Source of the DNA: a virus
Taxonomy: Duplodnaviria; Heunggongvirae; Uroviricota; Caudoviricetes
Length of the DNA stretch: 27,110 nt
Direction: 5' to 3' (one strand)
IMG/VR virus record: IMGVR_UViG_2534681878_000029
Shown: positions 1 to 24,455 of the stretch, in pieces
Layout: each line of letters opens with the position of its first letter
How positions within the stretch are numbered: position 1 is the first letter of the stretch
Notes under the pieces: generated by a model
The model's database searches: none
Told to the model about the DNA's origin: nothing
The model's input: only the letters and a program-made list of their open reading frames with translations
Position numbers and translations under genes: made by a program

Positions 1-975
1 TTACACATCATTAGTACCTTCCTTATTTTTTGACTGGGACAAATTTGGGACCGATGGGTTCAGGATCGAGTCTATTTGCCGTGCGTGTTCGGTAAGGTGA
101 TTAGGTGCAAGGTGAGCATATCGACGAACCATTTCGATAGACTCCCAGCCTCCCATTTCCTGTAACACTGACAACGGGACTCCGGCTTGAACCAGCCAAC
201 TTGCCCAGGTGTGTCTCAAGTCGTGAAATCTGAAATCATCAATACCAGCCCGTCTCAGCGCCGCTTTCCAGGCTGTGTTTGCGTCATACCGCATCTTCCT
301 TACTGTTGGCGCTTTCGTTCCGTCTGGTTTGGTACAGCTTTCCTTGTACACAAATACCCAACGGTGATGATTACCGATTTGTTTTTTCAATACGCGACAT
401 GCAGTATCATTCAGCGCAACGCCAATTGCGCGGTTTGATTTACTCTCTTCCGGGTTTATCCATGCCACCCGGCGCTGCATATCTATTTGTTGCCATTCAA
501 GGTTGATGATGTTCGAGCGTCTTAAGCCTGTTGCCAGTGCAAATTCAACAACAGACTTTAATGGCTCCGGACATTCATCAATCAGCCTTTGTGCTTCATG
601 GGGCTCCAGCCAGCGGAGCCGTTTATTCTTTGGTTGAGGCACTTTAATAATTGGTGCCTTATCGAGCATTTTCCATTCACGCTCTGCGGCTCTTAGCAGG
701 GCCTTTATAAATGAAAGATGCGTAGCCTTCGTTGCAACGGACGCTGGTTTTGGCGTGTATTCTGGAACAGGTTTCCCTTTTTTTCTGCATGCTTCTGCCC
801 TGAGTTTCCAGTTTTCCTCATGACGCCGGTTCGTCATTTTCTGCATTGCTGAATAAATTTTTGATTCAGTAATGTCTCTTAGTTGCATTCCTGCGAAATG
901 TTGAAGCCAGAATCCGATCTGCTTTCCATTGAGCCTGTTTCTCTGCGCGACGTTCGCGGCGGCGTGTTTGTGCAT
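1..975 (-). CDS. int: Tyrosine recombinase (lambdoid prophage integrase); complete ORF with stop at 1-3
   Basis: 324 aa ORF with C-terminal catalytic signature HDLRHTWAS...VRRYAHL (His-x-x-Arg and Tyr nucleophile) typical of phage integrases. Lies at the edge of the lambdoid module. The N-terminal arm-binding region may be missing or frameshifted (overlapping ORF 866-1111). Confidence 0.85.
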
Positions 976-1446
976 CCATCTGGATTCTCCTGTTAGTTAG
1001 CTTTGGTTGTGTGTGGGAGTCGTAGTCCTGAACGAAAACACCCCGCAATGGCACATTGGCTGCTAATCCGGATTCGCACTTCCGGCCAATGCTTCGTTTC
1101 GTATCACACACACCAAAGCCTTCTGCTTTGAATGCTGCCCTTCTTCAGGGCTTAATTTTTAAGAGCATCACCTTCATGGTGGTTAGTGCGTCCTGCTGAT
1201 GTGCTTAGTATCACCGCTAGTGGTATTTGTGTCAACACCGCCAGAGATAATTTATCACCGCAGATGGTTATCTGTATGTTTTTTATATAGATTTATTTTT
1301 TGCAGGGTTGTGTGGCTTGGGAGGTGATCGAGAGATCAGAATTGCGTTGTTTAGTGAGTTGCACCTATTAATTTTAAAATAAATACAATTGGTGAACCGC
1401 CCCGGGTTTCCTGGAGACTAAACTCCCTGAGAAAGAGGTAAACAGG

Positions 1447-1773
1447 ATGACTAAAAATACTCGTTTTTCCCCCGAAGTCCGTCAGCGGGCGATTCGTATG
1501 GTTCTGGAAAGTCAGGATGAATATGACTCACAGTGGGCGGCAATTTGTTCCATTGCCCCAAAGATTGGCTGTACGCCGGAGACTCTGCGTGTCTGGGTTC
1601 GCCAGCATGAGCGGGATACCGGGGGCGGTGATGGTGGGCTCACCAGCGCTGAACGTCAGCGTCTGAAAGAGCTGGAACGTGAAAATCGTGAACTGCGCCG
1701 CAGTAACGATATCCTTCGCCAGGCTTCCGCTTATTTTGCGAAGGCGGAGTTCGACCGCCTCTGGAAAAAATGA
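1447..1773 (+). CDS. IS3-family transposase OrfA (HTH/leucine-zipper part)
   Basis: 108 aa, [22 protein letters not shown]...; recognised from memory as IS629/IS1203-type OrfA. A second near-identical copy lies at 6565-6891 on the minus strand. Confidence 0.9.
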
Positions 1774-2660
1774 TGCCACTGCTGGATAAGCTGCGTGAGC
1801 AGTACGGGGTCGGACCGGTATGCAGCGAACTGCATATTGCCCCGTCAACGTATTACCATTGTCAGCAACAGCGACATCATCCGGATAAACGCAGTGCCCG
1901 TGCGCAGCACGACGACTGGCTGAAGAGAGAGATACAGCGCGTATACGATGAAAATCATCAGGTGTACGGTGTGCGTAAAGTCTGGCGTCAGTTGTTACGG
2001 GAAGGAATCAGGGTGGCCAGATGTACAGTGGCACGTCTCATGGCGGTTATGGGACTTGCCGGTGTTCTCCGGGGTAAAAAGGTCCGTACGACCATCAGCC
2101 GGAAAGCCGTTGCCGCAGGCGACCGCGTAAACCGTCAGTTCGTGGCAGAACGACCTGACCAGCTGTGGGTGGCTGATTTTACTTACGTCAGCACATGGCA
2201 GGGCTTCGTCTATGTGGCGTTTATCATTGATGTGTTTGCCGGATACATCGTGGGGTGGCGGGTCTCATCGTCTATGGAAACGACATTCGTGCTGGATGCG
2301 CTGGAGCAGGCGTTGTGGGCCCGTCGTCCGTCTGGCACCATCCATCACAGCGATAAAGGCTCTCAGTATGTGTCACTGGCCTATACGGAGCGACTAAAAG
2401 AAGCCGGATTACTGGCATCAACAGGGAGTACAGGCGACTCGTATGACAACGCGATGGCTGAGAGCATCAATGGTCTTTACAAAGCGGAGGTAATACACCG
2501 TAAGAGCTGGAAAAACCGTGCAGAAGTGGAACTGGCCACACTAACGTGGGTGGACTGGTATAACAATCGACGATTGCTGGGAAGGCTGGGCCATACTCCT
2601 CCGGCAGAAGCAGAAAAAGCTTATTATGCTTCCATCGGAAACGATGATCTGGCAGCCTGA
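1770..2660 (+). CDS. IS3-family transposase OrfB (DDE integrase-like catalytic domain)
   Basis: 296 aa, overlaps OrfA by 4 nt in the -1 frame; C-terminal portion matches the IS3/IS2 DDE transposase pattern; second copy at 5678-6568 on the minus strand. Confidence 0.9.
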
Positions 2661-2701
2661 GTTCACAGATAAAACACTCTCCAGGAAACCCGGGGCGGTT
2701 C

Positions 2702-3054
2702 AAGGCTGTTTTTCGAGTTTTTCTTAACTCTTCATGCAGCTCCGTTCTCAGAATATATGATTTTTCGAGTTTGAAATTCTTGCGACCAGGCGTCTTATTG
2801 CCAGGCTCAGGAAGTGGAAGGCGTGTTTGAATGTCGAGTGGTGGACAGTCATAGAAGTAAATTCTATAAAGCTCAAGCGGTTCCCTACGTTCTTGTGATT
2901 GACGTTTTCCATTAAGATGGGAAAGAACCATTGACCATATTACTTTCATTATGCATTGCGCAGTCAGTTCATGCTCGGCGAAGTGTTTACGATGCGTAGC
3001 ATGAACACGCTGCATGAAAAAACCCGCATCAATTAAAATTGCTGCTTTCTTCAT
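2702..3054 (-). pseudogene. cI-downstream gene of unknown function, 5' ~117 codons retained, 3' end replaced by IS629
   Basis: ORF starts 128 bp downstream of the cI stop (the position rexA occupies in lambda) with MKKAAILIDAGFF...; from residue ~118 the reading frame runs into the antisense of IS629, so the native 3' end is lost. Confidence 0.5.
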
Positions 3055-3181
3055 AAGAGTCCCAAAAAAATAGCCCAGAGCCGTTATGCAGATATTAACA
3101 ATTGTCTGCGAACGGGGCTGGGCTTGGTTTAATTAATCTATGCCAAGTTGACTGTGCCGTCAACATAAAACTTACTTCCTA

Positions 3182-3898
<717 letters not shown>

Positions 3899-3905
3899 TT
3901 AAATC

Positions 3906-3969
3906 TATCACCGCAAGGGATAAATATCTAACACCGCGCGTGTTGACTACTTTACCTCTGGCGGTGATA
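3906..3969. promoter_or_regulatory. Lambda right operator OR3-OR2-OR1 with divergent PRM/PR promoters
   Basis: OR3 TATCACCGCAAGGGATA (3906-3922), OR2 TAACACCGCGCGTGTTG (3929-3945), OR1 TACCTCTGGCGGTGATA (3953-3969). PR -35 TTGACT (3943-3948) and -10 GATAAT (3966-3971). cro SD AAGGAGG at 3985-3991. Confidence 0.9.
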
Positions 3970-3986
3970 ATGGTTGCATGTACTAA

Positions 3987-4196
<210 letters not shown>

Positions 4197-4203
4197 ATAA
4201 CCC

Positions 4204-4235
4204 CGCTCTTACACATTCCAGCCCTGAAAAAGGGC
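4204..4235 (+). promoter_or_regulatory. nutR antitermination site (boxA CGCTCTTACA, boxB hairpin GCCCTGAAAAAGGGC)
   Basis: Canonical lambda nutR boxA/boxB sequence immediately downstream of cro; boxB is a perfect 5-bp stem with a GAAAA loop. Confidence 0.8.
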
Positions 4236-4314
4236 ATCCAATTAAACCACACCTATGGTGTATGCATTTATTTGCATACATTCAATCAATTGTTATCTAA
4301 GGAAATACTTACAT

Positions 4315-4608
4315 ATGGTTCGTGCAAACAAACGCAACGAGGCTCTACGAATCGAGAGTGCGTTGCTTAACAAAATCGCAATGCTTGGAACTGAGAAGAC
4401 AGCGGAAGCTGTGGGAGTTGATAAGTCGCAGATCAGCAGGTGGAAGAGAGACTGGATTCCAAAGTTCTCAATGCTGCTTGCTGTTCTTGAATGGGGGGTC
4501 GTTGACGACGACATGGCTCGATTGGCGCGACAAGTTGCTGCGATTCTCACCAATAAAAAACGCCCGGCGGCAACCGAGCGTTCTGAACAAATCCAGATGG
4601 AGTTCTGA
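4315..4608 (+). CDS. cII: Lambda-type CII transcriptional activator
   Basis: 97 aa from the ATG at 4315 (MVRANKRNEALRIESALLNKIAMLGTEKTAEAVGVDKSQISRWKRDWIPKF...). The upstream extension in the ORF track is not used. A TTGC-N6-TTGC CII-binding motif of PRE is present antisense at ~4323-4338. Confidence 0.95.
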   Translation: MVRANKRNEALRIESALLNKIAMLGTEKTAEAVGVDKSQISRWKRDWIPKFSMLLAVLEWGVVDDDMARLARQVAAILTNKKRPAATERSEQIQMEF

Positions 4609-4640
4609 GGTCATTACTGGATCTATCAACAGGAGTCATT

Positions 4641-5563
4641 ATGACAAATACAGCAAAAATACTCAACTTCGGCAGAGGTAACTTTGCCGGACAGGAGCGT
4701 AATGTGGCAGATCTCGATGATGGTTACGCCAGACTATCAAATATGCTGCTTGAGGCTTATTCGGGCGCAGATCTGACCAAGCGACAGTTTAAAGTGCTGC
4801 TTGCCATTCTGCGTAAAACCTATGGGTGGAATAAACCAATGGACAGAATCACCGATTCTCAACTTAGCGAGATTACAAAGTTACCTGTCAAACGGTGCAA
4901 TGAAGCCAAGTTAGAACTCGTCAGAATGAATATTATCAAGCAGCAAGGCGGCATGTTTGGACCAAATAAAAACATCTCAGAATGGTGTATCCCTCAAAAC
5001 GAGGGAAAATCCCCTAAAACGAGGGATAAAACATCCCTCAAATTGGGGGATTGCTATCCCTCAAATTGGGGGATTGCTATCCCTCAAAACAGGGGGACAC
5101 AAAAGACACTATTACAAAAGAAAAAAGAAAAGATTATTCGTCCGAGAATTCTGGCGAATCCTCTGACCAGCCAGAAAACGATCTTTCTGTGGTTAAACCG
5201 GATGCTGCAATTCAGAGCGGCAGCAAGTGGGGAACAGCAGAAGACCTGACCGCCGCAGAGTGGATGTTTGACATGGTGAAGACCATCGCGCCATCAGCCA
5301 GAAAACCGAATTTTGCTGGGTGGGCTAACGATATCCGCCTGATGCGTGAACGTGACGGACGTAACCACCGCGATATGTGTGTGCTTTTCCGCTGGGCCTG
5401 CCAGGACAACTTCTGGTCCGGTAACGTGCTGAGTCCGGCCAAACTCCGCGACAAGTGGACCCAGCTCGAAATCAACCGTAACAAGCAACAGGCAGGCGTG
5501 ACAGCCAGCAAACCAAAACTCGACCTGACAAACACTGACTGGATTTACGGGGTGGATTTATGA
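4641..5563 (+). pseudogene. O: Lambda-type replication initiator O, frameshifted inside the ori iteron region
   Basis: N-terminal 140 aa in frame 0 (ORF 4641-5249) and C-terminal ~160 aa in frame +2 (ORF 5051-5563), both matching lambda O. The frame break coincides with a 23-bp tandem duplication of an iteron plus spacer. Confidence 0.8.
4989..5097 (+). repeat. ori-lambda iterons, five copies (one more than canonical), followed by an AT-rich tract
   Basis: ATCCCTCAAAACGAGGGA (4989-5006), ATCCCCTAAAACGAGGGA (5009-5026), ATCCCTCAAATTGGGGGA (5033-5050), TTGCT spacer, ATCCCTCAAATTGGGGGA (5056-5073), TTGCT spacer, ATCCCTCAAAACAGGGGGA (5079-5097); then the A-rich stretch at 5100-5135. Confidence 0.85.
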
Positions 5564-5635
5564 AAAACATCGCCGCACAGATGGTTAACTTTGACCGTGA
5601 GCAGATGCGTCGGATCGCCAACATCGATAACCAGG
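5560..5635 (+). pseudogene. P: Lambda-type P (helicase loader) 5' fragment, truncated by IS629 copy 2
   Basis: MKNIAAQMVNFDREQMRRIAN matches the lambda P N-terminus; the reading frame then enters the IS629 terminal repeat at 5636. Confidence 0.8.
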
Positions 5636-5677
5636 TGAACCGCCCCGGGTTTCCTGGAGAGTGTTTTATCTGTGAAC

Positions 5678-6568
5678 TCAGGCTGCCAGATCATCGTTTC
5701 CGATGGAAGCATAATAAGCTTTTTCTGCTTCTGCCGGAGGGATATGACCCAGCCTTCCCAGCAATCGTCGATTGTTATACCAGTCCACCCACGTGAGTGT
5801 GGCCAGTTCCACTTCTGCACGGTTTTTCCAGCTCTTACGGTGTATTACCTCCGCTTTGTAAAGACCATTGATGCTCTCCGCCATCGCGTTGTCATACGAG
5901 TCACCTGTACTCCCTGTTGATGCCAGCAGTTTTGCTTCTTTTAGTCGCTCCGTATAGGCCAGTGATACATACTGAGAACCTTTATCACTGTGATGGACTG
6001 TGCCGGACGGCCGACGGGCCCACAACGCCTGCTCCAGTGCATCCAGCACGAATGTCGTTTCCATAGACGATGAGACTCGCCACCCCACGATGTATCCGGC
6101 AAACACATCAATGATAAACGCCACATAGACGAAGCCCTGCCATGTGCTGACGTAAGTAAAATCAGCCACCCACAGCTGGTCAGGTCGTTCTGCCACGAAC
6201 TGACGGTTTACGCGGTCGCCTGCGGCAACGGCTTTCCGGCTGATGGTCGTACGGACCTTTTTACCCCGGAGAACACCGGCAAGTCCCATAACCGCCATGA
6301 GACGTGCCACTGTACATCTGGCCACCCTGATTCCTTCCCGTAACAACTGACGCCAGACTTTACGCACACCGTACACCTGATGATTTTCATCGTATACGCG
6401 CTGTATCTCTCTCTTCAGCCAGTCGTCGTGCTGCGCACGGGCACTGCGTTTATCCGGATGATGTCGCTGTTGCTGACAATGGTAATACGTTGACGGGGCA
6501 ATATGCAGTTCGCTGCATACCGGTCCGACCCCGTACTGCTCACGCAGCTTATCCAGCAGTGGCATCAT
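5678..6568 (-). CDS. IS3-family transposase OrfB (copy 2)
   Basis: 296 aa, ~99% identical to the 1770-2660 product (e.g. I192V, G212K, T278I differences). Confidence 0.9.
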
Positions 6569-6891
6569 TTTTTCCAGAGGCGGTCGAACTCCGCCTTCGC
6601 AAAATAAGCGGAAGCCTGGCGAAGGATATCGTTACTGCGGCGCAGTTCACGATTTTCACGTTCCAGCTCTTTCAGACGCTGACGTTCAGCGCTGGTGAGC
6701 CCACCATCACCGCCCCCGGTATCCCGCTCATGCTGGCGAACCCAGACACGCAGAGTCTCCGGCGTACAGCCAATCTTTGGGGCAATGGAACAAATTGCCG
6801 CCCACTGTGAGTCATATTCATCCTGACTTTCCAGAACCATACGAATCGCCCGCTGACGGACTTCGGGGGAAAAACGAGTATTTTTAGTCAT
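6565..6891 (-). CDS. IS3-family transposase OrfA (copy 2)
   Basis: C-terminal 108 aa of the 316-aa track ORF are identical to OrfA of copy 1; the ATG is at 6889-6891 (reverse strand). The upstream 208 aa of the track ORF are antisense read-through and not called. Confidence 0.9.
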
Positions 6892-6944
6892 CCTGTTTAC
6901 CTCTTTCTCAGGGAGTTTAGTCTCCAGGATTTCCGGGCGGTTCA

Positions 6945-7977
6945 AGGACATGACGATATCGGTCTGGGTCTTTCCTGATACTGATATTTCAGATGTATCG
7001 CGTGAGTTAATTGCGGCAATTAAACAGGGGTATCTAACAGTAAAAGCCGCCGGGGTATGGGCGGGGGGCATTGAAACACCTTCGGTGGAAACTCCATCGG
7101 AAGGCTCTAAATTTTTTGGTTTTGATATGGATAACGAATTCATCAGTGGTTTTGATGTAGGGGCATGGGGAGTATTACTCTGATGGCGAAAAATGACTTT
7201 AAAGCGTTTGCAACTGATCGAAATGCCAATGTTATGTCGCAGGAGGAATGGGAAGCGTTGCCTGCGCTTATATCCGGATTTACAGCAGGGAAAGCATCCA
7301 GTGCGCAAGTCAATAAGGTTATTCGGCAGGCCAGCTTTATTGCTGCAGCTCTGGCCCAGTTTGTAAGTGATAAAACGCAACGGGATGTGCTTGATAATGG
7401 TGATCTGCCCGGTTTTGTTGAATTGCTGGGATCGGGGTTTGCTGTTGAATACCTGAGCCGCAAGAATCCGTTTGGCGATATCAAATCGGACGGCACGGTG
7501 AAAACGGCTCTTCAAAACCTTGGTTTGGGAGAAGGTGCTCCAGCTATTGGCGTTCCGTTCTTCTGGCCGTCCGCTGCAATGCCAAATACTGTAATCGACA
7601 GCTGGTCCTGTATGGTGTTTTTGAAGTTCAACGGCGCGAAATTCTCTGCCACTGATTATCCTGTGCTGGCGAAAGTGTTTCCTTCGCTGGTATTACCTGA
7701 AGCCCGCGGTGATTTCATTCGTATCTGGGATGACGGGCGAGGTGCAGACGGTGGTCGCGAATTATTAAGCTGGCAGGCAGCTACAAACTTTTCTCAGTTT
7801 GCCGGGAATATAGGCGAAGGTGCGGGACACGCAATTAACTTTCATGATGGCATCGCCGGAAATCAGCCAGGATTTTCACGATTTAATTTCACCAGTAACT
7901 CTGTGGGTGATGGTGTGAATTTTGTTGCAGTCAGACCGCGAAATATTGCATTTAACTTTCTGGTGAGGGCTAAATAA
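6945..7977 (+). pseudogene. stf: Side tail fibre gene 3' remnant (C-terminal receptor-binding segment), 5' end removed at the IS629 junction
   Basis: ORF 7165-7977 (270 aa) is immediately followed by a tail-fibre assembly gene. The preceding 220 bp are open in another frame (6950-7183). No N-terminal tail-fibre shaft is present because the IS629 end is at 6944. Confidence 0.65.
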
Positions 7978-8570
7978 TGAAACCTGTTTTTGATGAAAAT
8001 GGGCTGGCTACAGTGCCGGGCGATATGCGTTGTTTTTATTATGATGCTGAAACATCTGAGTATACGGGCTGGTCTGATGAATATATTAATACTGGCGTAA
8101 GTATGCCCGCCTGTTCCACTGGTATTGACCCTGGCGAAAACATTCCGGGAAGAGTGGCAGTATTTACAGGTAAGGGATGGAGCCATGAAGAAGACCATCG
8201 CAATGAGACTGTTTACTCAATCGAAAATGGCGCAGCTGTTACAGTGGATTATATCGGTGCCATCAAAGACGGTTATGTCACGATTTCACCGTTAACGCCA
8301 TACGATAAATGGGATGGTGAGAAATGGGTGACAGACACTGAGGCACAACACAGTGCCGCAGTAGACGCGGCAGAAGCACAGCGCCAATCACTGATTGATG
8401 CAGCAATGGCTTCCATTAGTCTGATTCAGCTGAAGTTACAGGCCGGACGGAAACTGACTCAGGCAGAAACAACCCGACTTAACGCCGTGCTGGATTACAT
8501 TGACGCGGTGACGGCAACAGATACCAGCACCGCGCCGGATGTCATCTGGCCTGAACTGCCGGAGGCGTAG
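7977..8570 (+). CDS. tfa: Tail fibre assembly protein (Tfa-like chaperone)
   Basis: 197 aa; start overlaps the stf stop (TAATG). Its C-terminal motif ...LDYIDAVTATDTSTAPDVIWPELPEA has a counterpart in the convergent paralogue at 8542-8994 (...LDYLDALELVDTSGAPDIEWPTPPAVQAR). Confidence 0.85.
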   Translation: MKPVFDENGLATVPGDMRCFYYDAETSEYTGWSDEYINTGVSMPACSTGIDPGENIPGRVAVFTGKGWSHEEDHRNETVYSIENGAAVTVDYIGAIKDGYVTISPLTPYDKWDGEKWVTDTEAQHSAAVDAAEAQRQSLIDAAMASISLIQLKLQAGRKLTQAETTRLNAVLDYIDAVTATDTSTAPDVIWPELPEA

Positions 8571-8994
8571 GCCATTCAATATCTGGCGCACCGGAAGTAT
8601 CGACCAGCTCCAGTGCGTCCAGATAATCCAGCCACAAATTATATTGCGTCAGTTCGTCACCTTTCAGACGACCAATAGCCGCTTTACCGGGCCATTGCTT
8701 ACTGTTCATGTATTCGTTGGCCTGGTTAATTAGTAGCTGTCTTTCTGATTCAGTAATTTCAATAAGCTCTTCATGCGTGGGTGGAGGAATATCTGCCCAC
8801 GCAGGCAGCCCATCATCTCCGGCAATACGGATTTTTCCTTGTGGCGGTTCAGCCATAAACTCACTGATAATATTTTGATTTACTTCCTTAGCGTCTGATA
8901 AATCCCATCCCTCTGATTTATATTTATCAATCATATCCACAGGGAAAAAAGCATTATGCCTTGCGCTATAAACATATTCGTCCATATAAATCAC
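8542..8994 (-). CDS. Alternative tail fibre assembly protein (inverted-orientation paralogue)
   Basis: 150 aa, convergent with tfa and overlapping its 3' end; shares the C-terminal Tfa motif. This arrangement is typical of Pin/Gin/Cin invertible host-range cassettes. Confidence 0.8.
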   Translation of the reverse strand: MIYMDEYVYSARHNAFFPVDMIDKYKSEGWDLSDAKEVNQNIISEFMAEPPQGKIRIAGDDGLPAWADIPPPTHEELIEITESERQLLINQANEYMNSKQWPGKAAIGRLKGDELTQYNLWLDYLDALELVDTSGAPDIEWPTPPAVQAR

Positions 8995-9005
8995 CCTGAA
9001 TAAAA

Positions 9006-9419
9006 TTACTCACCAACAGCCCACCAACTGTAATTCATCGATACCGTGTCGCTGGTTGATGACGTTCTGTAAGCAGAATTAAAGCCGGTTAACGTTGGGC
9101 CTTCTGCAGTCATCACGAACCCTCGCCCAGCGCCTAAAGGCGCACCGCCATCACCAGAATGAGTAAGCATGGCGCAGTCCGCTTTTTTGGGGAAAGGGAT
9201 GCTGAATGTAATTCTCATTGTTTGCGTCGATAATGTCGGCGTAACCGCACCACGACCATATTGCAGGATTTTCCCGTTGGGTAATTTCATCCATCCATTA
9301 CCACTGGCAAAAGAGGCCATGTCCGGTATCTGATTTTCCCCTGTCCCCACATCCCGTTTTGCCGCTTCTCCCAAACCAACGTTTATGAAAATGCAGAAAT
9401 AACGAGCAAATGGCATCAT
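9006..9419 (-). CDS. Alternative tail fibre C-terminal cassette (silent orientation, no independent promoter expected)
   Basis: 137 aa ORF ending just upstream of the alternative tfa; Gly/Ser/Thr-rich like fibre tips; its 5' end overlaps the candidate crossover site at 9364-9389. Confidence 0.55.
   Translation of the reverse strand: MMPFARYFCIFINVGLGEAAKRDVGTGENQIPDMASFASGNGWMKLPNGKILQYGRGAVTPTLSTQTMRITFSIPFPKKADCAMLTHSGDGGAPLGAGRGFVMTAEGPTLTGFNSAYRTSSTSDTVSMNYSWWAVGE
9364..9389. promoter_or_regulatory. Candidate invertase crossover site (gix/pix-like 26-bp site)
   Basis: TTCTCCCAAACCAACGTTTATGAAAA fits the dyad pattern TTnnCnnAAACC-nn-GGTTTnnGnnAA known for Gin/Hin/Pin sites and lies just upstream of pin. 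I could not unambiguously locate the partner site. Confidence 0.45.
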
Positions 9420-9445
9420 TCCTGCTTTTGTCAGGGAGATCTACC

Positions 9446-10000
9446 ATGCTTATTGGCTATGTACGTGTGTCAACAAATGACCAGAACACAGATCTACAAC
9501 GTAATGCGCTGAACTGTGCAGGATGCGAGCTGATTTTTGAAGACAAGATAAGCGGTACAAAGTCCGAAAGGCCGGGACTGAAAAAACTGCTCAGGACATT
9601 ATCGGCAGGTGACACTCTGGTTGTCTGGAAACTGGATCGGCTGGGGCGCAGTATGCGGCATCTGGTCATTCTGGTTGAGGAGTTGCGCGAACGTGGCGTT
9701 AATTTTCGCAGCCTGACGGATGCTATTGATACCAGTACCCCAATGGGGCGCTTTTTCTTTCATGTGATGGGGGCCCTGGCTGAAATGGAACGAGAACTGA
9801 TTGTTGAACGAACAAAAGCTGGACTGGAAGCTGCTCGCGCACAGGGACGAATTGGTGGACGTCGTCCCAAACTTACACCAGAACAATGGGCGCAGGCCGG
9901 ACGATTAATTGCAGCAGGAATTCCTCGCCAGAAGGTAGCGATCATCTATGATGTTGGTGTATCGACACTGTATAAGAAGTTTCCGGCCGGAGATAAATGA
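9446..10000 (+). CDS. pin: Serine DNA invertase of the Pin/Gin/Hin family
   Basis: 184 aa from the ATG at 9446 (SD AGGGAG at 9434-9439): MLIGYVRVSTNDQNTDLQRNAL...VVWKLDRLGRSM...GRIGGRRPKL...; resolvase N-domain with catalytic Ser and C-terminal HTH. Confidence 0.9.
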   Translation: MLIGYVRVSTNDQNTDLQRNALNCAGCELIFEDKISGTKSERPGLKKLLRTLSAGDTLVVWKLDRLGRSMRHLVILVEELRERGVNFRSLTDAIDTSTPMGRFFFHVMGALAEMERELIVERTKAGLEAARAQGRIGGRRPKLTPEQWAQAGRLIAAGIPRQKVAIIYDVGVSTLYKKFPAGDK

Positions 10001-11654: not shown

Positions 11655-12398
11655 ATGGCAACTACATGTTCAGTTATATTGATTTTGGAGTCCTTTGATG
11701 TTTATTTCGGAAAAGAGAGTGTGTTTCTGGAGAGAGGTTCATCTGTACTTGTCGACTCTAGCTCTAGAGATTTTTTCCTGACATATCCTGAAAGAGTGAT
11801 AGTGGCGGATTTTGGCGCTGAGTTTATTAGTCGCTATTTGAAAGCTAATAACTTAAGGGATATTTCTGATTGTAGGGAATATCCATCTTATTTAAAAATA
11901 AACTTTGCTGACTTCAGTTTAATTAAAGGATTAATTAGTTGGGCTAATCACTGTGCTGAATACATAGAAATTTTTGATGAGTCTATTGCTTTTACATGTC
12001 TCTCTGCATTTTCTTCTGAAAAACAATTTGGAGTATTTCTGTTTGGATGTTTGAAAAGCACAGGGGCTAAAGTTAAAACGATTATTCATACGGATTTATC
12101 TGCACCATGGCGTCTTAAGGATATATCATCAAGATTATATCTCAGCGAAAGTTTACTAAAGAGGAAATTGAAAGAAGAGGGGGTATCATTCAGTAAGATC
12201 ATACTTGATGAGAGGATGCAAATGGCTGAATATTTACTCAGCACTCGTTGTTATCCTATTAGTAAAGTAGCTAAGGTCTGTGGTTATGCCAGTGTCTCAT
12301 ACTTTACTTATGTATTTAGACGTTATTTTGGTGTTTCTCCAAGTCAATACTCTCAGAGGAGTTCAGAAAGTAAAATTCTTACTCACCAGGGAATCTGA
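11655..12398 (+). CDS. AraC/XylS-family transcriptional regulator (AppY/GadX-like)
   Basis: 247 aa, strong SD GGGGGGA before the ATG; N-terminus MATTCSVILILESFD resembles AppY (MDYVCSVVFICQSFD); C-terminal AraC-type HTH (...KVAKVCGYASVSYFTYVFRRYFGVSPSQY). Sits in an AT-rich segment. Confidence 0.8.
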   Translation: MATTCSVILILESFDVYFGKESVFLERGSSVLVDSSSRDFFLTYPERVIVADFGAEFISRYLKANNLRDISDCREYPSYLKINFADFSLIKGLISWANHCAEYIEIFDESIAFTCLSAFSSEKQFGVFLFGCLKSTGAKVKTIIHTDLSAPWRLKDISSRLYLSESLLKRKLKEEGVSFSKIILDERMQMAEYLLSTRCYPISKVAKVCGYASVSYFTYVFRRYFGVSPSQYSQRSSESKILTHQGI

Positions 12399-12439
12399 TC
12401 ATTGTTCTTGCCCCCTTATTTCCAGACAGGGGGGGTATC

Positions 12440-12805
12440 TTAAGTTAACGTTACCCGCTGACGTCGATATTCTCGCGGAGAGCGATAACCCAACGCACTG
12501 TGCGGATGGTTTTCATTGTAATGTTCGATCGCCACTGCAAGATTATGCAATGCCGTTCTTACATTCGGTTTCGGCATGAACGCGATGTAGTCTTCCTTCA
12601 TCGTTTTCACGAACCTTTCTGCAATTCCATTACTCTGAGGACTGCTGATTGCCGTTGTGCAGGGCTCCAGATTCAACTCTCTGGCGAACTGCCGTGTTTC
12701 ATGCGCTCTATACGCTGAACCGTTATCTGTCAGCCACTGGATGGACTGTTCCGGTACTTTATCGCCAAAGCGTTTTTCTATCGCTCCTAACATGACATCC
12801 TGCAC
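12440..12805 (-). pseudogene. IS3-family (IS2-group) transposase OrfB C-terminal fragment
   Basis: 121 aa ...[51 protein letters not shown]...[14 protein letters not shown] resembles the IS2 InsD C-terminus; no intact upstream catalytic domain or OrfA. Confidence 0.8.
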
Positions 12806-13152
12806 TGTCGCTTTATCGTAACCTCCCGTGCTTGCGGCCCAGTCTATGGCTTCACGATCGCAACAGTCCAGGGCGATTCATCTGGGCCAATCCTTGCTCA
12901 TAACAGGCATTCACTTCAGTCATGGCAGAAAGGTATGCATGCTGGAGAAGTCGTGAAAGAAAAGAAGACTGCTGCGCCGTTTGTCGTCACGTTTATCTTC
13001 ATTGGCTATGCAAGTCGTAATACAAGGTGGGACAAAACTGAGACACATAAGGCCTCGCAATGGCTTGCAAGGCTTTACATGTTTTGATGTGGTGGGACGT
13101 GTGAGCGCAGTGTTGATGGGGTAATGCTTTGAATTAGAAGCGGATTCTTATA

Positions 13153-13198
13153 ATTCGTAATGCGAAGGTCGTAGGTTCGACTCCTATTATCGGCACCA
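13153..13198 (+). tRNA. Partial tRNA-Thr (anticodon CGU, thrW-like), 3' ~46 nt only: attL core of the P4-like element
   Basis: ATTCGTAATGCGAAGGTCGTAGGTTCGACTCCTATTATCGGCACCA equals the 3' part of tRNA-Thr(CGU) from the anticodon loop; the upstream sequence is unrelated to the tRNA 5' half. Confidence 0.8.
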
Positions 13199-13360
13199 TC
13201 TCAACTTCCTCAAACGTCCGTATTAGTCCATAAAATCTCTGATTTATAACATTTTTTATTCTTTTAAGTCCATAGTAGTCCGTAACCATCCAGTAGAATC
13301 CGGTACTGAATGTGTATAGGATTGTGTATATGTTCCTGTTCGGTCTGGATTCCTATACAC

Positions 13361-14542
13361 ATGCCTTTAAACGATATGCAGATTCGCCGCGCTAAGCCTG
13401 AAGCTAAAGCCTATACATTTGGAGATGGGCTAGGGTTGTCATTACTTATAGAACCTAATGGAAGCAAGAGTTGGCGGTTCCGCTATCGCTATGCCGGCAA
13501 ACCCAAAATGATCTCGCTTGGTGTTTACCCAACGATCACCCTTGCCGATGCTCGTTCCCGTCGTGATGAAGCTCGAAAACTTGTGGCAGAAGGAAAGAAC
13601 CCTAGTGAGGTTCGAAAAGAGCAAAAGCTAGCTATGCAAACAGAGTCAGAGAACGCCTTCGAAAAGATAGCCAGAGAGTGGCATCAACTTAAATCTGCTA
13701 AATGGTCGGCGGGATATGCATCAGACATCATGGAAGCGTTTAAGAACGACATTTTTCCTTATGTCGGAACAAGGCCTGTGGGAGAGATTAAACCGCTAGA
13801 GCTGCTGAACGTTCTGCGTAAAATTGAGAAACGTGGTGCGTTGGAGAAAATGCGCAAAGTGCGGCAGCGTTGCTCCGAAGTGTTTCGCTACGCAATTGCA
13901 ACGGGTAGGGCGGAGTACAATCCTGCGGCTGATCTCTCCAGCGCTCTCGAAGTACACCAATCCAATCATTTCCCATTCCTAAAAGCTGATGAGATACCTG
14001 ATTTTCTACGTGCCTTAGAGGGTTACTCCGGGAGTAAGCTTGTCCAGATAGCCACGAAATTACTGATGATTACGGGTGTGAGAACCATCGAATTACGCGC
14101 GGCATTATGGCAAGAATTTGATCTGGATAACGCTATTTGGGAAATTCCTGCTGAAAGGATGAAAATGCGTAGGCCACATCTTGTGCCCTTATCATCTCAA
14201 GCGGTAGATTTACTCAATGAACTCAAGATCATGACAGGGAACTATCGTTATGTTTTTCCAGGGCGGAACGATCCGAATAGGCCAATGAGCGAAGCGAGTA
14301 TAAATCAAGCCATTAAGCGTATTGGGTATGGAGGAAAAGTCACTGGACATGGTTTTCGTCATACCCTTTCTACAATCCTGCATGAGCAAGGTTTTGAGAG
14401 TGCTTGGATTGAAATCCAGTTGGCTCATGTAGATAAAAATTCTATTAGGGGGACTTATAACCATGCTCAATATTTTAGTGGAAGGAAGTCTATGATGGAC
14501 TGGTACAGTAATTTGATATTTGAAAGACTAAAAAGGAGTTAA
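13361..14542 (+). CDS. int: P4-type tyrosine integrase (IntA/IntS-like, DUF4102 N-domain)
   Basis: MPLNDMQIRRAKPEAKAYTFGDGLGLSLLIEPNGSKSWRFRYRYAGKPK... with the C-terminal R...HGFRHT...Y catalytic signature; directly downstream of the tRNA-Thr fragment. Start moved to the ATG at 13361 because the track extension overlaps an inverted repeat. Confidence 0.9.
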   Translation: MPLNDMQIRRAKPEAKAYTFGDGLGLSLLIEPNGSKSWRFRYRYAGKPKMISLGVYPTITLADARSRRDEARKLVAEGKNPSEVRKEQKLAMQTESENAFEKIAREWHQLKSAKWSAGYASDIMEAFKNDIFPYVGTRPVGEIKPLELLNVLRKIEKRGALEKMRKVRQRCSEVFRYAIATGRAEYNPAADLSSALEVHQSNHFPFLKADEIPDFLRALEGYSGSKLVQIATKLLMITGVRTIELRAALWQEFDLDNAIWEIPAERMKMRRPHLVPLSSQAVDLLNELKIMTGNYRYVFPGRNDPNRPMSEASINQAIKRIGYGGKVTGHGFRHTLSTILHEQGFESAWIEIQLAHVDKNSIRGTYNHAQYFSGRKSMMDWYSNLIFERLKRS

Positions 14543-14545
14543 TTT

Positions 14546-14962
14546 GTGTCTCAACCACTTTCGGAAATATTGACATGGGATGATGAACAATGGGAGGTAT
14601 TTGTCCATGATTGGCTTATTGTCTGTAAATCAGATGATTACCCGTGGAGCGAACGTTTGGGAGGAGCTGGAGATAAAGGTAGAGACGTTGTTGGATATAA
14701 ATCGGATCCTAACGTAGAAGGTTATTCTTGGGATAATTATCAATGCAAACTGTACAAAAAAAGTTTAGGGTTCTCTGATGTTGTAGTTGAGTTTGGAAAA
14801 CTTATCTATTTTACTCTGAATGGTGATTATCCCATCCCTCAGAAGTACTTTTTTGTGGCACCCTATGATTTATCTACTACATTTTCTAATTTATTGAAAA
14901 ATAAAAACGAGCTTAAAAAAGCAGTCCTTGATTCATGGGATTCAGCAATTTCAAAAAAATAA
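14546..14962 (+). CDS. Mrr-like PD-(D/E)xK nuclease-domain protein (candidate effector, N-terminal part)
   Basis: GTG start 4 nt after the int stop with SD AAGGAG at 14533-14538. Motif GGAGDKGRDVVGY ... YQCKLYKK (residues 39-72) matches the Mrr_cat pattern g-DgG-D ... QcK. AT-rich. Confidence 0.6.
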   Translation: MSQPLSEILTWDDEQWEVFVHDWLIVCKSDDYPWSERLGGAGDKGRDVVGYKSDPNVEGYSWDNYQCKLYKKSLGFSDVVVEFGKLIYFTLNGDYPIPQKYFFVAPYDLSTTFSNLLKNKNELKKAVLDSWDSAISKK

Positions 14963-15552
14963 CTAAAAAGATTGATATTCCATTAGATGATGAAATAAAA
15001 AAATATATTGAGGATTTTGATTTTAGTATTTTTTACTCTCTACCCTTATCATTGATTTTAAATGATATTGCAAATACACACCTTTATTTTAAGTACTTTA
15101 ACGAGCTGTATGTCGTGAGAATCCCTCCAAATGAAATTCCAACATACAATTCAAAAAAAGAGTCTGTATATGTTAATGCACTGCTTCAAGCCTATTCAGA
15201 GCATGGAAATAAAACTTATAGTTCTTTCTTAGAGCTTGATGATCCATACAGACGACACTTTAATAATAGTAGAAATGATTTTTATTTTGCATCTTCGCTT
15301 GAGGTTTTTGTCCGCGAAGTATTTAAAGATGATGTATTCAAAGCATTGAAATGTTACATTTCATCTTCAATTGAACCCGTCTTTTATGAAGACCATAATT
15401 ATGCATTTATTAGGTGTAATGCAGTCTTGAAGCAGGCTGTTCTGACACCAATTGCACATTCAGTACTATCAAAAATATGTGAAGCAAATGATAAAAAAGG
15501 AATATGCCATCATTTGGTTAATGATGGTGAAGTAATTTGGACGGTGAGATAA
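14935..15552 (+). CDS. Hypothetical protein; possibly the C-terminal continuation of the preceding ORF via -1 frameshift at an A7 run
   Basis: 205 aa ORF overlapping the previous one by 28 nt in the -1 frame; the overlap contains AAAAAAA (14953-14959) followed by the 0-frame stop; no recognisable motif. Confidence 0.5.
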   Translation: MGFSNFKKITKKIDIPLDDEIKKYIEDFDFSIFYSLPLSLILNDIANTHLYFKYFNELYVVRIPPNEIPTYNSKKESVYVNALLQAYSEHGNKTYSSFLELDDPYRRHFNNSRNDFYFASSLEVFVREVFKDDVFKALKCYISSSIEPVFYEDHNYAFIRCNAVLKQAVLTPIAHSVLSKICEANDKKGICHHLVNDGEVIWTVR

Positions 15553-16010
15553 TGGTTAGAATTTATAATTCAAGTTTAGAAGTGGCATGTCGAATGGCGA
15601 AAGTGCTCGTCGCTATTTATCCTTCTTCATTAAGCCTTGAACGGCTTATTTGTTTTGATTTTATTTTAGTAAATCTTAAGGATTTTTTACCTGAAGAGAT
15701 TAGTCTTCATCCTCCAATACCCCGTAGAGATGCTCAGTTAGCCCTAAAACGAGAGATTGTTTTAGAATCATTGGCTTTGTTGCAAGGCTATGAACTAGCC
15801 TCAAAAATTTATACACATCGTGGTTTTGTATATAAAGCTTCTGAAAAAACATATGCATTTACAAATTCTCTACATAATGAATATGTTGCGCAGATGGAGC
15901 ATAATATAAATTTGGTGGTTAAGTTATATAGTGATATTCCTGATGAGCAGTTGCAATCAATTATAAAAAATAAAATTGGCAAATATGATATGGAATTTAA
16001 TTATGAATGA
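15552..16010 (+). CDS. Hypothetical small protein (middle component)
   Basis: 152 aa from the ATG at 15552, overlapping the upstream stop as TAATG (translational coupling); no recognisable motif. Confidence 0.5.
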   Translation: MVRIYNSSLEVACRMAKVLVAIYPSSLSLERLICFDFILVNLKDFLPEEISLHPPIPRRDAQLALKREIVLESLALLQGYELASKIYTHRGFVYKASEKTYAFTNSLHNEYVAQMEHNINLVVKLYSDIPDEQLQSIIKNKIGKYDMEFNYE

Positions 16011-16635
16011 CAATTTTTTTACGTTCAGAAAAATAAAGGTAACCGGATTCAATAAATTAGATGCTATAATTGAATTTGGTTCTAAATTGACTATTTTATA
16101 TGGTGGTTCTGACTCTGGAAAAACATACATATATTATTTGATTCGATATTTATTAGGGAGTGAAAAACTAAAAAATAAAGATATCGATCATGCTCAAGGT
16201 TATGATTTAGCCTATCTGGAATTTAATTTTCAAGGTAGGGTAATGACAATTGAGAGGTCTCTTCAGGATAGCGCCCATTACAGATTATATGATTCGAGCA
16301 TTGAAAATGTTAGTGAAGCTAATCTGTTGATGGTTTTTTCCAAAAGTGCTTCGTCTAAAAAGAGTTTTTCATCATACTTTTATGGTAGGTTGAATTTCAA
16401 AGAGGCTAAAGTAAGAACAAACTTAAGTAATACTCTTCATAAATTTAATCTTAATAATGTTTTTGAATTTTTTTGTATTGATGAATTAAGAGTGTTAACT
16501 GAGAAGTCGTTAATTCTTTCTGATATTCCTAGCGAGGAGACAAAAAGAAAGTCTGAATTTAAATTCCTTTTAACTCAGAGAGATGATACTAACTCCTTAG
16601 CAGAAAAACCAAATAAAAAAGCAAGATATTTTTAA
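15985..16635 (+). CDS. ABC/SMC-like ATPase, N-terminal head with Walker A
   Basis: FRKIKVTGFNKLDAIIEFGSKLTILYGGSDSGKT: the SMC/RecF/RecN-type N-terminal strand followed by P-loop GGSDSGKT (nt 16102-16125). Start uncertain (ATG 15985 or 16003). Confidence 0.6.
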   Translation: MIWNLIMNDNFFTFRKIKVTGFNKLDAIIEFGSKLTILYGGSDSGKTYIYYLIRYLLGSEKLKNKDIDHAQGYDLAYLEFNFQGRVMTIERSLQDSAHYRLYDSSIENVSEANLLMVFSKSASSKKSFSSYFYGRLNFKEAKVRTNLSNTLHKFNLNNVFEFFCIDELRVLTEKSLILSDIPSEETKRKSEFKFLLTQRDDTNSLAEKPNKKARYF

Positions 16636-16665
16636 AAAAATCAAATTGCAAATATTTATGAGGAA

Positions 16666-17256
16666 TTGAAAGCGCAATTAATTTATCCTGAATATGATCA
16701 AGTCATTGTTTCAAGAGAACTTGAGAAAGTAGAGCAAGATATTGAATCATCGAAAGATATATTGAAAGGTATTGTTGATGCACTTGATGATAAGAAGCAA
16801 TTATTAAAAGAGTTAAGTGATGAATTATATTCAATCAGTGACAGGGAAAAATACTTATCATTACTCATTGAAAGATTTAGTCTTCTTAAAGACCAATACT
16901 TTATAGATCTACAAAGAATAGATGTTGTATCACAGGCGAATTTCTATTTAAATAATTTTGCAGATATTTATTGTGAGTTCTGTAATACACCGCAAAAAAA
17001 AGAAAATGAAATATCATATGATGATTGTTTTTTGTCGTGTAATGCAGAAAAATTGAAAATCAAAAGCCAGCTGAAAGGATTAATTGAATCAATCGGATCT
17101 AATGTTCGCGAACATGAATTAATTATGTTAAGAAAAAATGATGTTAATGAAATTTATCAATCAGAAAAAAGTGATTTTAAGACGTTAGAAGATAAAAATA
17201 TAAAACAATACATTCATCTCTTGAATCACTTTATGAATATAAAGACAATCTTTTAA
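16666..17256 (+). CDS. Coiled-coil segment, same frame as the preceding ORF and separated from it only by a single TAA
   Basis: 196 aa rich in heptad-like K/E/L/I repeats; the track start is TTG with no convincing SD; in frame with 15985-16635 across the TAA at 16633-16635. Confidence 0.5.
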   Translation: MKAQLIYPEYDQVIVSRELEKVEQDIESSKDILKGIVDALDDKKQLLKELSDELYSISDREKYLSLLIERFSLLKDQYFIDLQRIDVVSQANFYLNNFADIYCEFCNTPQKKENEISYDDCFLSCNAEKLKIKSQLKGLIESIGSNVREHELIMLRKNDVNEIYQSEKSDFKTLEDKNIKQYIHLLNHFMNIKTIF

Positions 17257-17822
17257 TGGATCACACAAAACATAGCATTCTATCTTCATTACAAGATAAA
17301 GAAGATGATGTTGACGAACTTAAATACTCCGCCGAGGACTTTGACTCCTTAACAGTAGCTGATTTGTATGATATAGAAATAGCGATGCAAGACTTTTTGA
17401 ATGATATAAATTTTGAAAATTCTAAAGATAACAAAGTGCGATTTGACGAAGATACATATGACTTTAATATCAATGGGAAACGCCGAGGAATGTTTGGTAA
17501 AGGTACCCGTGCAGTAATGCATGCTATATTTACCATTTGCTTTGCGGAATTTTTATCAAGAAAAGGGAATCCATTCATTGGATTTGTTGTGCTTGATAGT
17601 CCATTAGTGACGCACTTTGATAAAGATAGAGGGGGTTCTCTATCGGATGTTAATAGCGTCAGTCTCAGTGATTCATTTTATCACGCATTAATCAAAAGGG
17701 ACTATAATTTCCAGATTGTAATTCTTGAGAATAAAGGTCCGACGTTCCAAATAAAAATTAATGATGCAAATAAAATCCATAACTTAAATAAGAATGGAAG
17801 CTCTGGTTTTTATCCTGTTTAA
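17256..17822 (+). CDS. ABC/SMC-like ATPase, C-terminal head with signature-like and Walker B motifs
   Basis: ...RRGMFGKGTRAVMHAIFTICFAEF (signature-like region) followed ~20 aa later by IGFVVLDSP (Walker B-like hhhhD); ATG overlaps the upstream stop as TAATG. Confidence 0.55.
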   Translation: MDHTKHSILSSLQDKEDDVDELKYSAEDFDSLTVADLYDIEIAMQDFLNDINFENSKDNKVRFDEDTYDFNINGKRRGMFGKGTRAVMHAIFTICFAEFLSRKGNPFIGFVVLDSPLVTHFDKDRGGSLSDVNSVSLSDSFYHALIKRDYNFQIVILENKGPTFQIKINDANKIHNLNKNGSSGFYPV

Positions 17823-18231
17823 TACATTAAAAATATAACTGCTAATTGGGGTGCTCGAAATTATATTTCGTTTCGAGCGCTCAGTTCATTTCTAAATAAT
17901 TTGCAAAATTATTTTGGGTACTTTCGCCTCTACACTTCCTTCGGGTGGTTCCACAATAATGGATCTCACCGGCGTTTGATATTTTATAATCTAACCCCTT
18001 AGCGCGCGCAGCCCCCCACGCCTGCTCGCTTCGCTTAACAGACTGGTTTTCATGCATTCCGCAAATCGTCTCAGAAGCCACCACACAAGGGCTTTCGCGT
18101 CAAAAATGGTGCATGAGAATCATGCGTTTTCATGCGCTATAGACATGCACTCATGCGCTCTCAGGCCAGCCAGGGAAAAGGCGTAAAAAATCCCAGTACT
18201 GGACCGGGATTACGTGGGCTTTTTTTGCTAA

Positions 18232-18504
18232 TCAGACAGGAATTTGCTGACGGCTTGACAGCTTTGACGCGGAGCCATAGCGATTGAGAGTTTGCTGTTG
18301 TTTTTCCGGCATTTGTGCTTTCTCTGATTCCTGTTCATTGCGCCGGGGCTTCATGATTATCGTATCCACACTTTCCAGTGCGGTAAATGTGTAGGAACAT
18401 TCAAGATTCTGGCACTGATACCATGAGCGTTTAACCGATGGTGCTTCATAGGCGGAGGTTCTGGCGTGTGCCGTCGTACCGCATTCGGGACATTTAAGTG
18501 CCAT
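18232..18504 (-). CDS. Ogr/Delta-family zinc-finger late-gene transcriptional activator
   Basis: MALKCPECGTTAHARTSAYEAPSVKRSWYQCQNLECSYTFTALESV: the CxxC...AHARTS...QCxNxxC...TF pattern of P2 Ogr / P4 Delta. Confidence 0.85.
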   Translation of the reverse strand: MALKCPECGTTAHARTSAYEAPSVKRSWYQCQNLECSYTFTALESVDTIIMKPRRNEQESEKAQMPEKQQQTLNRYGSASKLSSRQQIPV

Positions 18505-18509
18505 TAATA

Positions 18510-19061
18510 TTACTCCTGCATGCCGTTAATGTAATCCAGACGTTGCTGAAAGCGCAGTTGTTGTGCAGGGGTGTAAGAGCTCTGGCAATCACGAACCATC
18601 ATGGGGTCAGGCATCACACCGGATTCATCCAGAATCATACGATAATCCCCGGCAATTTCAGGCGGTGTTATTGCCAGCTGGCGAACCAGAGCATTGCGTA
18701 ATATACGGGACGCAACGTCAACCCCTCCGCGCCCCTTCAGGAACGGAGCCAGTGCAGATGTCAGGGCTGCTCCATTCGCCTGCATAAAATTGCTGAGAGC
18801 GTCTTCTGTGCAGGCCTCCATCAGTTGATGCTGCGAGTAAATGCATTCGCGCGCAGCACAGTTAATTTGCCATTTCAGCACATCCAGATGTTCCCGCTGT
18901 AATTCGAGCTGTCGAGCATAATCTGCTGGTTTTTCCATGGCAGTGAGGAGTGATTCTATCTGTTGTTCAACGGCTTTTCGGCTCTCACTATGTCCAGCCC
19001 ACAGAATACGGGCATTTCTAAAACTGATAAGCGCTTGGTCTGGAGTGACTCGGGCCATCAT
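18510..19061 (-). CDS. psu: Psu-like protein (P4 polarity suppression / capsid decoration family)
   Basis: 183 aa; shares recalled P4 Psu motifs (KWQ[IV]N, HG[AT]ALA[AS]ALAP, TPAQ); co-oriented with the sid-like gene as in P4. Confidence 0.7.
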   Translation of the reverse strand: MMARVTPDQALISFRNARILWAGHSESRKAVEQQIESLLTAMEKPADYARQLELQREHLDVLKWQINCAARECIYSQHQLMEACTEDALSNFMQANGAALTSALAPFLKGRGGVDVASRILRNALVRQLAITPPEIAGDYRMILDESGVMPDPMMVRDCQSSYTPAQQLRFQQRLDYINGMQE

Positions 19062-19810
19062 ACTGCTTTCTCCTTCTCAGCACGTTCCTGACGAACCTTC
19101 ATTTTATGCATAGCTGCTGGAGAGAGTTTATTACTGAAATCCAGACGGGCCGCATAATCCGGGGCAACTCCCGCCAGTTTAAACACGGGGTCCTGTTCGG
19201 GCATCGCATCGTTAGTCAGAGCCGGTCTGGTGATATGTTTATGAATAAAATCTTTCAGCAGTGTGTCCGGGTCATTAACTGAATGCACCACACCGACAAC
19301 TGCGCTGGCTTCCCTGCCCATTGTTGATTTGAGCAGGCTTAGTGTCTGGATTAGTGCTTTTCCATGCGACTGCATAAAATCTTCCCAGATTTGTTTTGCG
19401 CGAATACCCACAAGGGTGTCGTGCGCGTGGATATACTTTCCGGCTAATTCCGCAGCCTCCTGCGGCAAAAGTGCATTTTCGCTTTCCTGAGCCGCCAGCA
19501 GCTCATCAAAATCCTCAAGCGTTTCTCGTCCCAGCGCAATTTCCGTGCGCAGTTTTTTCATTTCCTTTGAGACTACGCCCTGACTTTCACGAAATAGCGT
19601 GCGCCACTCCTCATTCAGGGCGTTCGTCGTGGCTTCCATTTCAGCGCGGCGCTGGCGGATTGTCGCAATATTATCCGCTGCCGCTTTTTGCTGACGACGT
19701 GCTTCAAGCCATGCAGATTTGGTGGCATTCACTTTCTCAAGCGCCTGTTGCGTCGAAACAGGGATAGAAATTTCAACGATCGGGTTATTGTTCTGTTCTG
19801 GGATTGTCAT
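19058..19810 (-). CDS. sid: Sid-like external scaffold protein (P4 capsid size determination family)
   Basis: 250 aa, Ala/Glu/Gln-rich helical protein upstream of psu in the same operon, divergent from the alpA/primase operon; resembles what I recall of P4 Sid (e.g. EEWRTLFRESQGVVS). Confidence 0.7.
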   Translation of the reverse strand: MTIPEQNNNPIVEISIPVSTQQALEKVNATKSAWLEARRQQKAAADNIATIRQRRAEMEATTNALNEEWRTLFRESQGVVSKEMKKLRTEIALGRETLEDFDELLAAQESENALLPQEAAELAGKYIHAHDTLVGIRAKQIWEDFMQSHGKALIQTLSLLKSTMGREASAVVGVVHSVNDPDTLLKDFIHKHITRPALTNDAMPEQDPVFKLAGVAPDYAARLDFSNKLSPAAMHKMKVRQERAEKEKAV

Positions 19811-22099: not shown

Positions 22100-22112
22100 G
22101 GAGGGCCGCACA

Positions 22113-24446: not shown

Positions 24447-24455
24447 CTGACCTAA

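Follow-up and report, generated by a model that had tools for sequence, protein, structure and literature searches.

The 27,110-nt stretch of DNA analysed here (the window) is, as identified from its sequence, the degraded lambda-immunity prophage Sp1 (CP-933H in EDL933) of E. coli O157:H7, integrated at thrW. Its O region (4641-5563) is 100% identical to that of Sakai Sp1 and of other E. coli O157:H7 genomes, and the Sakai annotation has a 'prophage Sp1, lambda-like phage' at thrW, with O (ECs_0277), P (ECs_0279) and int all entered as pseudogenes. By blastn the window is collinear with Sakai except for two extra copies of IS629/IS1203, at 1395-2706 and 5636-6944. With 98.2% nucleotide identity to lambda 37219-38700, the immunity region belongs to the lambda type, and the stretch at 4540-4640, which holds oop, pO and tO, is identical to lambda 38585-38685. 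The exact ends of the oop RNA (Table 1) follow the lambda oop transcript of 77 nt; in an Rfam scan of 3000-7200 no family covered oop, and the only match was the ALIL frameshift pseudoknot (RF01497, 6494-6610) inside the IS629 copy. The Sp1 remnant is without int (a pseudogene in Sakai) and without all late genes, and in Sakai Sp1 a tail-fibre/pin segment lies directly 3' of what is left of P.

Table 1. Features of the immunity and replication region of Sp1 in the window (positions are those of the window).
Feature	Position	Strand	Basis and details
cI repressor, lambda immunity type	3182..3895	-	ORF; 233/237 aa identical to lambda cI; ECs_0274
pR-like promoter TTGACT-17-GATAAT, driving cro-cII-O	3943..3971	+	Consensus scan; position corresponds to lambda oR/pR
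cII	4315..4608	+	Sakai ECs_0276, mapped by offset
oop antisense RNA unit	4554..4630	-	pO 4666-4638, tO 4584-4557; promoter and terminator scan matches
O pseudogene, 5' frame, 202 aa	4641..5249	+	Native residues 1-141 at 4641-5063, then 61 out-of-frame codons; stop 5247-5249
ITN1	4989..5006	+	Mapped annotation and pattern match
ITN2	5009..5026	+	Mapped annotation and pattern match
Duplication copy 1: ITN3 (5033-5050) and TTGCT spacer	5033..5055	+	Alignment, Tandem Repeats Finder, pattern
Duplication copy 2: extra ITN3 (5056-5073) and TTGCT; insertion relative to lambda and phage 21	5056..5078	+	Alignment, Tandem Repeats Finder, pattern
ITN4; first 10 bp ATCCCTCAAA equal the start of iteron 3	5079..5097	+	Mapped annotation and pattern match
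O pseudogene, 3' part, native residues 142-299	5087..5563	+	+2 frame, open from 5030
AT-rich unwinding region of ori-lambda	5098..5138	+	Identical to lambda 39120-39160
P remnant, first 21 codons, then unrelated sequence	5560..5622	+	21/21 identity to lambda P; annotated pseudogene
IS629/IS1203 copy, just 3' of the P remnant	5636..6944	-	blastn breakpoints, transposase ORFs; absent from Sakai

The two IS629/IS1203 copies stand in inverted orientation and flank the cI-cro-cII-O segment. The copy at 1395-2706 shares its insertion site with the IS carried by the TW14359/SS52 group, in the opposite orientation and with 99.8% identity, and the copy at 5636-6944 differs from the element of that group at 20 positions; the exact two-IS629 arrangement of the window was found in no complete genome of the collection. 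Further to the right, 7165-10000 is a pin-type invertible tail-fibre segment with pinE at 9446-10000 (the listed ORF starts at 9410). The annotated orientation of this segment varies among O157:H7 assemblies, and either a 'tail fiber protein' or a 'gp53-like domain-containing protein' is entered directly after the P remnant. From about 13180 to 26070 the window holds the P4-like prophage Sp2, with an integrase, a sid-like capsid-size gene, psu and a primase; the AAA-family ATPase of Sp2, a pseudogene in Sakai, corresponds to three ORFs of the window (15976-16635, 16666-17256 and 17256-17822).

Within O, a 23-bp unit made up of iteron 3 and its TTGCT spacer is repeated in tandem without a mismatch (5033-5055 and 5056-5078), and 4989-5097 holds five O-binding iterons instead of the four of lambda and phage 21. 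The preliminary description had placed a five-iteron array at exactly these coordinates, and both the alignments and the pattern search return them; the canonical number of four, likewise claimed, agrees with the annotations of lambda and phage 21. Iteron positions were mapped from the protein_bind features of these two phages through the alignments. Tandem Repeats Finder reported a period-23 array at 5033-5088 with 2.4 copies, 100% matches and the consensus ATCCCTCAAATTGGGGGATTGCT, which, together with the lambda and phage 21 alignments, bears out iteron 3 plus TTGCT as the duplicated unit, and the 10-bp repeat ATCCCTCAAA recurs at 5033, 5056 and 5079, where it bounds that unit. The iteron pattern was found on the plus strand at 4990, 5010, 5034, 5057 and 5080; with the palindromic reverse matches included there were 8 matches against 0.38 expected, a number reached by 0 of 100 shuffles. 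The perfect 23-bp tandem copy is far beyond chance.

When 4540-5140 was aligned with lambda NC_001416 38585-39162, the 601 columns contained one clean 23-column insertion, as had been anticipated of a comparison with the lambda reference, and a T/C substitution at 4988. The alignment with phage 21, in which four gpO binding sites are annotated, has the same single 23-column gap. The possibility that the reference itself has the five-iteron arrangement was rejected, as lambda and phage 21 both have four. Measured against ori-lambda, the extent of which is 39034-39160 in lambda (PMC3349717), the locus retains dyad-symmetric iterons of 18-19 bp inside the initiator gene and an AT-rich region to the right of the last iteron, and it is without an intact O, owing to a frameshift after residue 141, and without the lambda P helicase loader downstream.

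Gene O contains the origin, and an insertion of 23 bp, a length not divisible by 3, therefore puts translation out of the O frame after residue 141. The shift from frame 0 to frame +2 at the duplication, as first described, is seen in the ORF translations, and the two parts of the gene, which had been called lambda-O-like, proved to be identical to lambda O. Removal of one 23-bp copy in silico restores an O of 299 aa, and the natural four-iteron allele of Sp1 encodes an O protein identical to lambda O at 299/299 residues. In line with this, PGAP marks the five-iteron O as 'frameshifted'. The proposal that the initiator has been broken by its own origin repeats is thereby upheld as to the frameshift, and it is to be read with the fact that the match to Pfam Phage_rep_O (aa 22-115, E=1.9e-36) ends before the frameshift and is still in frame; the O gene is truncated, not erased. 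We found no solved structures of O. The C-terminal part of O recruits P-DnaB.

Only 21 of the 233 codons of lambda P are left in Sp1, and with P cut to this extent the O frameshift is one of several lesions; the duplication is not the sole lesion and perhaps not the first. With no late genes and so little of P, the remnant cannot replicate alone, and since four- and five-iteron alleles both occur in the same P-less remnant (see below), the O frameshift now adds nothing to the loss of replication. In Table 1 of Asadulghani et al. 2009 (PMC2669165), Sp1 is scored as repressor +, antirepressor +, integration D, excision - and replication D. In Sakai, Sp1 DNA was not amplified after mitomycin C, and the Sp1 early genes were clearly induced without DNA amplification (PMC2669165). 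As these genes are still SOS-induced, it may be that a truncated O is produced and has some activity. The words 'iteron' and 'frameshift' are both absent from the main text of that paper, so the base-level cause may not have been spelled out there. In substance, the O pseudogene and the defective replication of Sp1 were already known from the Sakai annotation, from PGAP and from PMC2669165, and the duplication is real but ordinary, because the remnant is also without P and its O was a pseudogene in the annotation already.

The number of iterons is not uniform in O157:H7. With a query of 1,725 bp that runs from cII through O and the P remnant to the tail fibre and was taken from a four-iteron strain, this Sp1 structure was found in 203 genomes, 13 of which, all complete O157:H7 genomes, have four iterons and an O protein identical to that of lambda (272, JEONG-1266, Rafaela_II, SS52, ECP19-798, 3-5-1, Al Ain, 08-3918, Z1812, 26_141088, UTME-4, PNUSAE151637 and 7386WT) and the rest of which are 23 bp longer. 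This four/five-iteron polymorphism is a new observation of the present analysis. The annotations of 3-5-1 (L010) and UTME-4 (L011) have an intact O in this same remnant, P being deleted there too, and over 2,929 bp the 23-bp gap is the sole difference between UTME-4 and the window. Further, an IS629 between the int remnant and the cI side marks a sublineage that holds both alleles, with five iterons in genomes that include TW14359, EC4115, SS17, F7386 and 7386Nal, and with four in SS52, 272, 3-5-1, 08-3918, Rafaela_II and 7386WT. Among genomes without the shared IS629, Sakai and EDL933 have five iterons and UTME-4 has four. If the IS inserted once, this four-gamete pattern cannot arise unless the 23-bp change was reversed or recurred at least once.

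The prophage at thrW in O55:H7 CB9615 (L014 17545-45001) is a different, apparently complete lambdoid prophage of another immunity type, which has four iterons, an O that is 96.3% identical, an intact P and a CII identical to that of Sp1. CB9615 was considered as an outgroup for polarising the change between four and five iterons and was set aside as uninformative, because it is a different prophage that occupies thrW in this strain.

Considering the geometry of the repeats, which points to slippage, we hold that the 23-bp duplication is very probably a slippage-made, neutral or near-neutral decay lesion in the ori-lambda/O region of the Sp1 remnant. The starting state would have been a four-iteron origin in which iterons 3 and 4 both open with ATCCCTCAAA, 23 bp apart, and mispairing of these 10-bp direct repeats by strand slippage, or an unequal exchange between them, could have duplicated iteron 3 together with TTGCT. 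In the resulting five-iteron array the O frame is lost after residue 141, with a stop 61 codons further on, and what is left is the N-terminal iteron-binding domain without the C-terminal part. The duplication, probably neutral or near-neutral, then became common in the O157:H7 lineage, and the same repeats would permit the precise loss of one copy, which is the simplest account of the minority of four-iteron strains with an intact O. The duplication, the frameshift, the identity with lambda, the distribution of the alleles and the loss of P are observed, while the slippage belongs to the proposed scheme and the neutrality of the duplication is an assumption in it. As to direction, the ancestral state may have been five iterons, with later reversions, or four.

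There is a slim chance that what has been retained is instead a means of interference, in which the N-terminal fragment of O, the oop RNA and the doubled ITN3 would dampen theta replication of rep-lambda phages, whether co-resident or incoming (the Stx1 phage Sp15, for example); on this view the frameshift would confer an advantage and not be mere decay. The parts that such an activity would call for are in place, as cI, pR, cro, cII, oop/pO/tO and the full set of iterons have been preserved intact, with near-identity to lambda, the iteron-binding domain of O is encoded upstream of the frameshift, and the early genes respond to mitomycin C though the element does not amplify (PMC2669165). Plasmids with oop plus ITN3-4 do block rep-lambda phages, and O/ori without oop is inert for inhibition; this inhibition was shown with multicopy plasmids, however, whereas Sp1 is present in a single copy (PMC3349717 for the plasmids). 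The predominance of the five-iteron allele in O157:H7 would fit an advantage but is equally explained by clonal descent, and four-iteron revertants persist with no obvious cost. As the two halves of O are unchanged from the lambda O protein, they carry no sequence signal of selection either way.

Improbable to a like degree is an extension of this idea, in which the 23-bp repeat would serve as a reversible slippage switch between a full-length lambda O (four iterons) and a truncated, DNA-binding-only O with an extra ITN3 (five iterons) that, expressed from the SOS-inducible remnant together with oop, would interfere in trans with the replication of rep-lambda phages. If true, such a switch would tune the output of Shiga-toxin phages (the co-resident Sp15) or exclude lambda-like invaders.

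Scarcely credible is the notion that the five-iteron origin works and that O is recoded downstream of the duplication, by ribosomal -1 frameshifting or by transcriptional slippage that adds one base, so as to restore the full-length protein. The two O frames do overlap over 5030-5249, where an A6 run (5121-5126) and three G5 runs are found, but this overlap has no X XXY YYZ slippery heptamer, the A6 within AAG AAA AAA GAA is the only long adenine run and forms no heptamer in that frame, and a run of six adenines is short for efficient slippage by RNA polymerase. A recoded O would, moreover, carry about 20-30 aberrant linker residues. Stx phages do have working origins with expanded iteron arrays (PMC7466680), but in Sp1 P is absent, so that O could not act for it, the element was not amplified after induction (PMC2669165), and the five-iteron allele is found only in the Sp1 remnant and in one doubtful draft contig.

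An error of assembly or consensus calling, with a true sequence of four iterons and the extra 23 bp a miscall in a tandem repeat, is just as hard to credit, and the possibility of such an error, raised when the array was first described, can be answered from the databases. Tandem repeats are prone to miscalls, and the 13 assemblies of the same remnant with four iterons, as well as strain 7386, whose own assemblies differ (four in 7386WT; five in 7386Nal, F7386 and a patient isolate), could be taken in this sense. However, 198 complete-genome records, among them Sakai, EDL933, TW14359, EC4115 and Xuzhou21, match the five-iteron O along its full length at 99% identity or more, and because these come from many laboratories and platforms and carry the same exact arrangement, the duplication is not an assembly artefact. 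The diagnostic junction TTGCTATCCCTCAAATTGGGGGA is present also in six Sp1-matching IMG/VR contigs from other genome projects, and in a seventh contig (L003) discussed below; it had no match in the GTDB species representatives or in JGI metagenome contigs. In the assembly of the window itself, the five-iteron allele is supported by its identity with about 200 other assemblies. Keeping in mind that the outlier among the 7386 assemblies is the one with four iterons, any error runs towards collapse, not expansion.

At least one of the four-iteron calls, that of 7386WT, is probably such a collapse, so that 13 of 203 is an approximate frequency for the four-iteron allele. The paper describing the 7386 genomes singles out 7386WT, for which MinION reads and Canu were used to check the PacBio assembly, and the O gene of this genome (L015) has clustered substitutions of its own, with no counterpart in any of the seven other O-gene sequences in the comparison. 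On the ground of these same substitutions, a paralogous O was rejected as the source of this allele through gene conversion, and an assembly error is likelier because five iterons are found in both the NalR derivative and the patient isolate.

Outside the Sp1 remnant, the identical 23-bp duplication was seen beside an intact P and ren in one contig (L003, IMG/VR UViG_2541047164_000016, 11985-13062). The flanks of this contig are Sp15-like and enclose an Sp1-like central tract of about 250-460 bp; such a mosaic is present in no complete E. coli genome, and on both grounds the contig was rejected as an independent occurrence of the duplication in an intact phage. It is more probably a draft-assembly chimera, or a rare gene conversion between prophages, than a separate event. 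A search of INPHARED with the five-iteron O returned no phage record at 99% identity or above; among the 30 matches listed, the spans were 900 or 939 bp, which correspond to four and six iterons, respectively.

What the duplication provides is a base-pair-level reason for the O pseudogene of a long-annotated O157:H7 remnant, and this matters little alone. With an origin inside the initiator gene, any expansion of the repeats is coupled to the reading frame, and the in-frame 39-bp expansions survive in active Stx phages, whereas the out-of-frame 23-bp one is found only in a dead element. The four/five-iteron polymorphism is of some use in practice as a marker, and it warns of the collapse of tandem repeats in assemblies. 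Greater import would follow only if the truncated O, oop and iterons of the remnant modulate the replication of co-resident Stx phages.

Among known systems, the locus is closest to the ori of lambda (NC_001416 39034-39160) and to that of phage 21, with which it shares the iterons, the spacers, the AT-rich region and the place inside O, and from which it differs in its five iterons (ITN3 and its spacer being present twice), the frameshifted O and the deleted P. The phage 21 O gene matches at 900 of 923 positions, and the 23 bp are the sole difference. Classical lambda ori mutations of the 1970s literature include small in-frame deletions within the iteron array that were selected as cis-acting ori defects and likewise rearrange iterons inside O; Sp1 has an out-of-frame duplication instead. 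Within the species, the O region of Sakai (ECs_0277) is the same as that of the window, and the strain of the window has two additional IS629 copies elsewhere in Sp1.

The Stx phages 933W and P27 and the Sakai prophage Sp15 offer a parallel, in that a lambda-type origin has likewise been expanded by tandem duplication of iterons inside O. In the Stx-phage origins a 39-bp copy of iterons 1-2 is in frame, giving six iterons and 13 additional residues, and is needed for plasmid establishment (P27 and 933W, PMC7466680), whereas in Sp1 a 23-bp copy of iteron 3 is out of frame in a dead element and the 39-bp in-frame pair that characterises the Stx origins is absent. In the Stx1 prophage Sp15 of Sakai (L013 985-1115), six iterons result from a diverged 39-bp copy of iterons 1-2, and ITN3 reads AAATTAGGGG, not AAATTGGGGG. 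The five-iteron array was also considered as an intermediate or a derivative of the six-iteron array of Stx phages, and this was rejected because the Sp15 alignment has the duplication of another unit at another place. Finally, the oop-ori-lambda inhibition fragments of Hayes et al. 2012 (PMC3349717) required tO-oop-pO and ITN3-4, all of which are also in the window; their effect was obtained on multicopy plasmids, whereas the element in Sp1 is single-copy and chromosomal.
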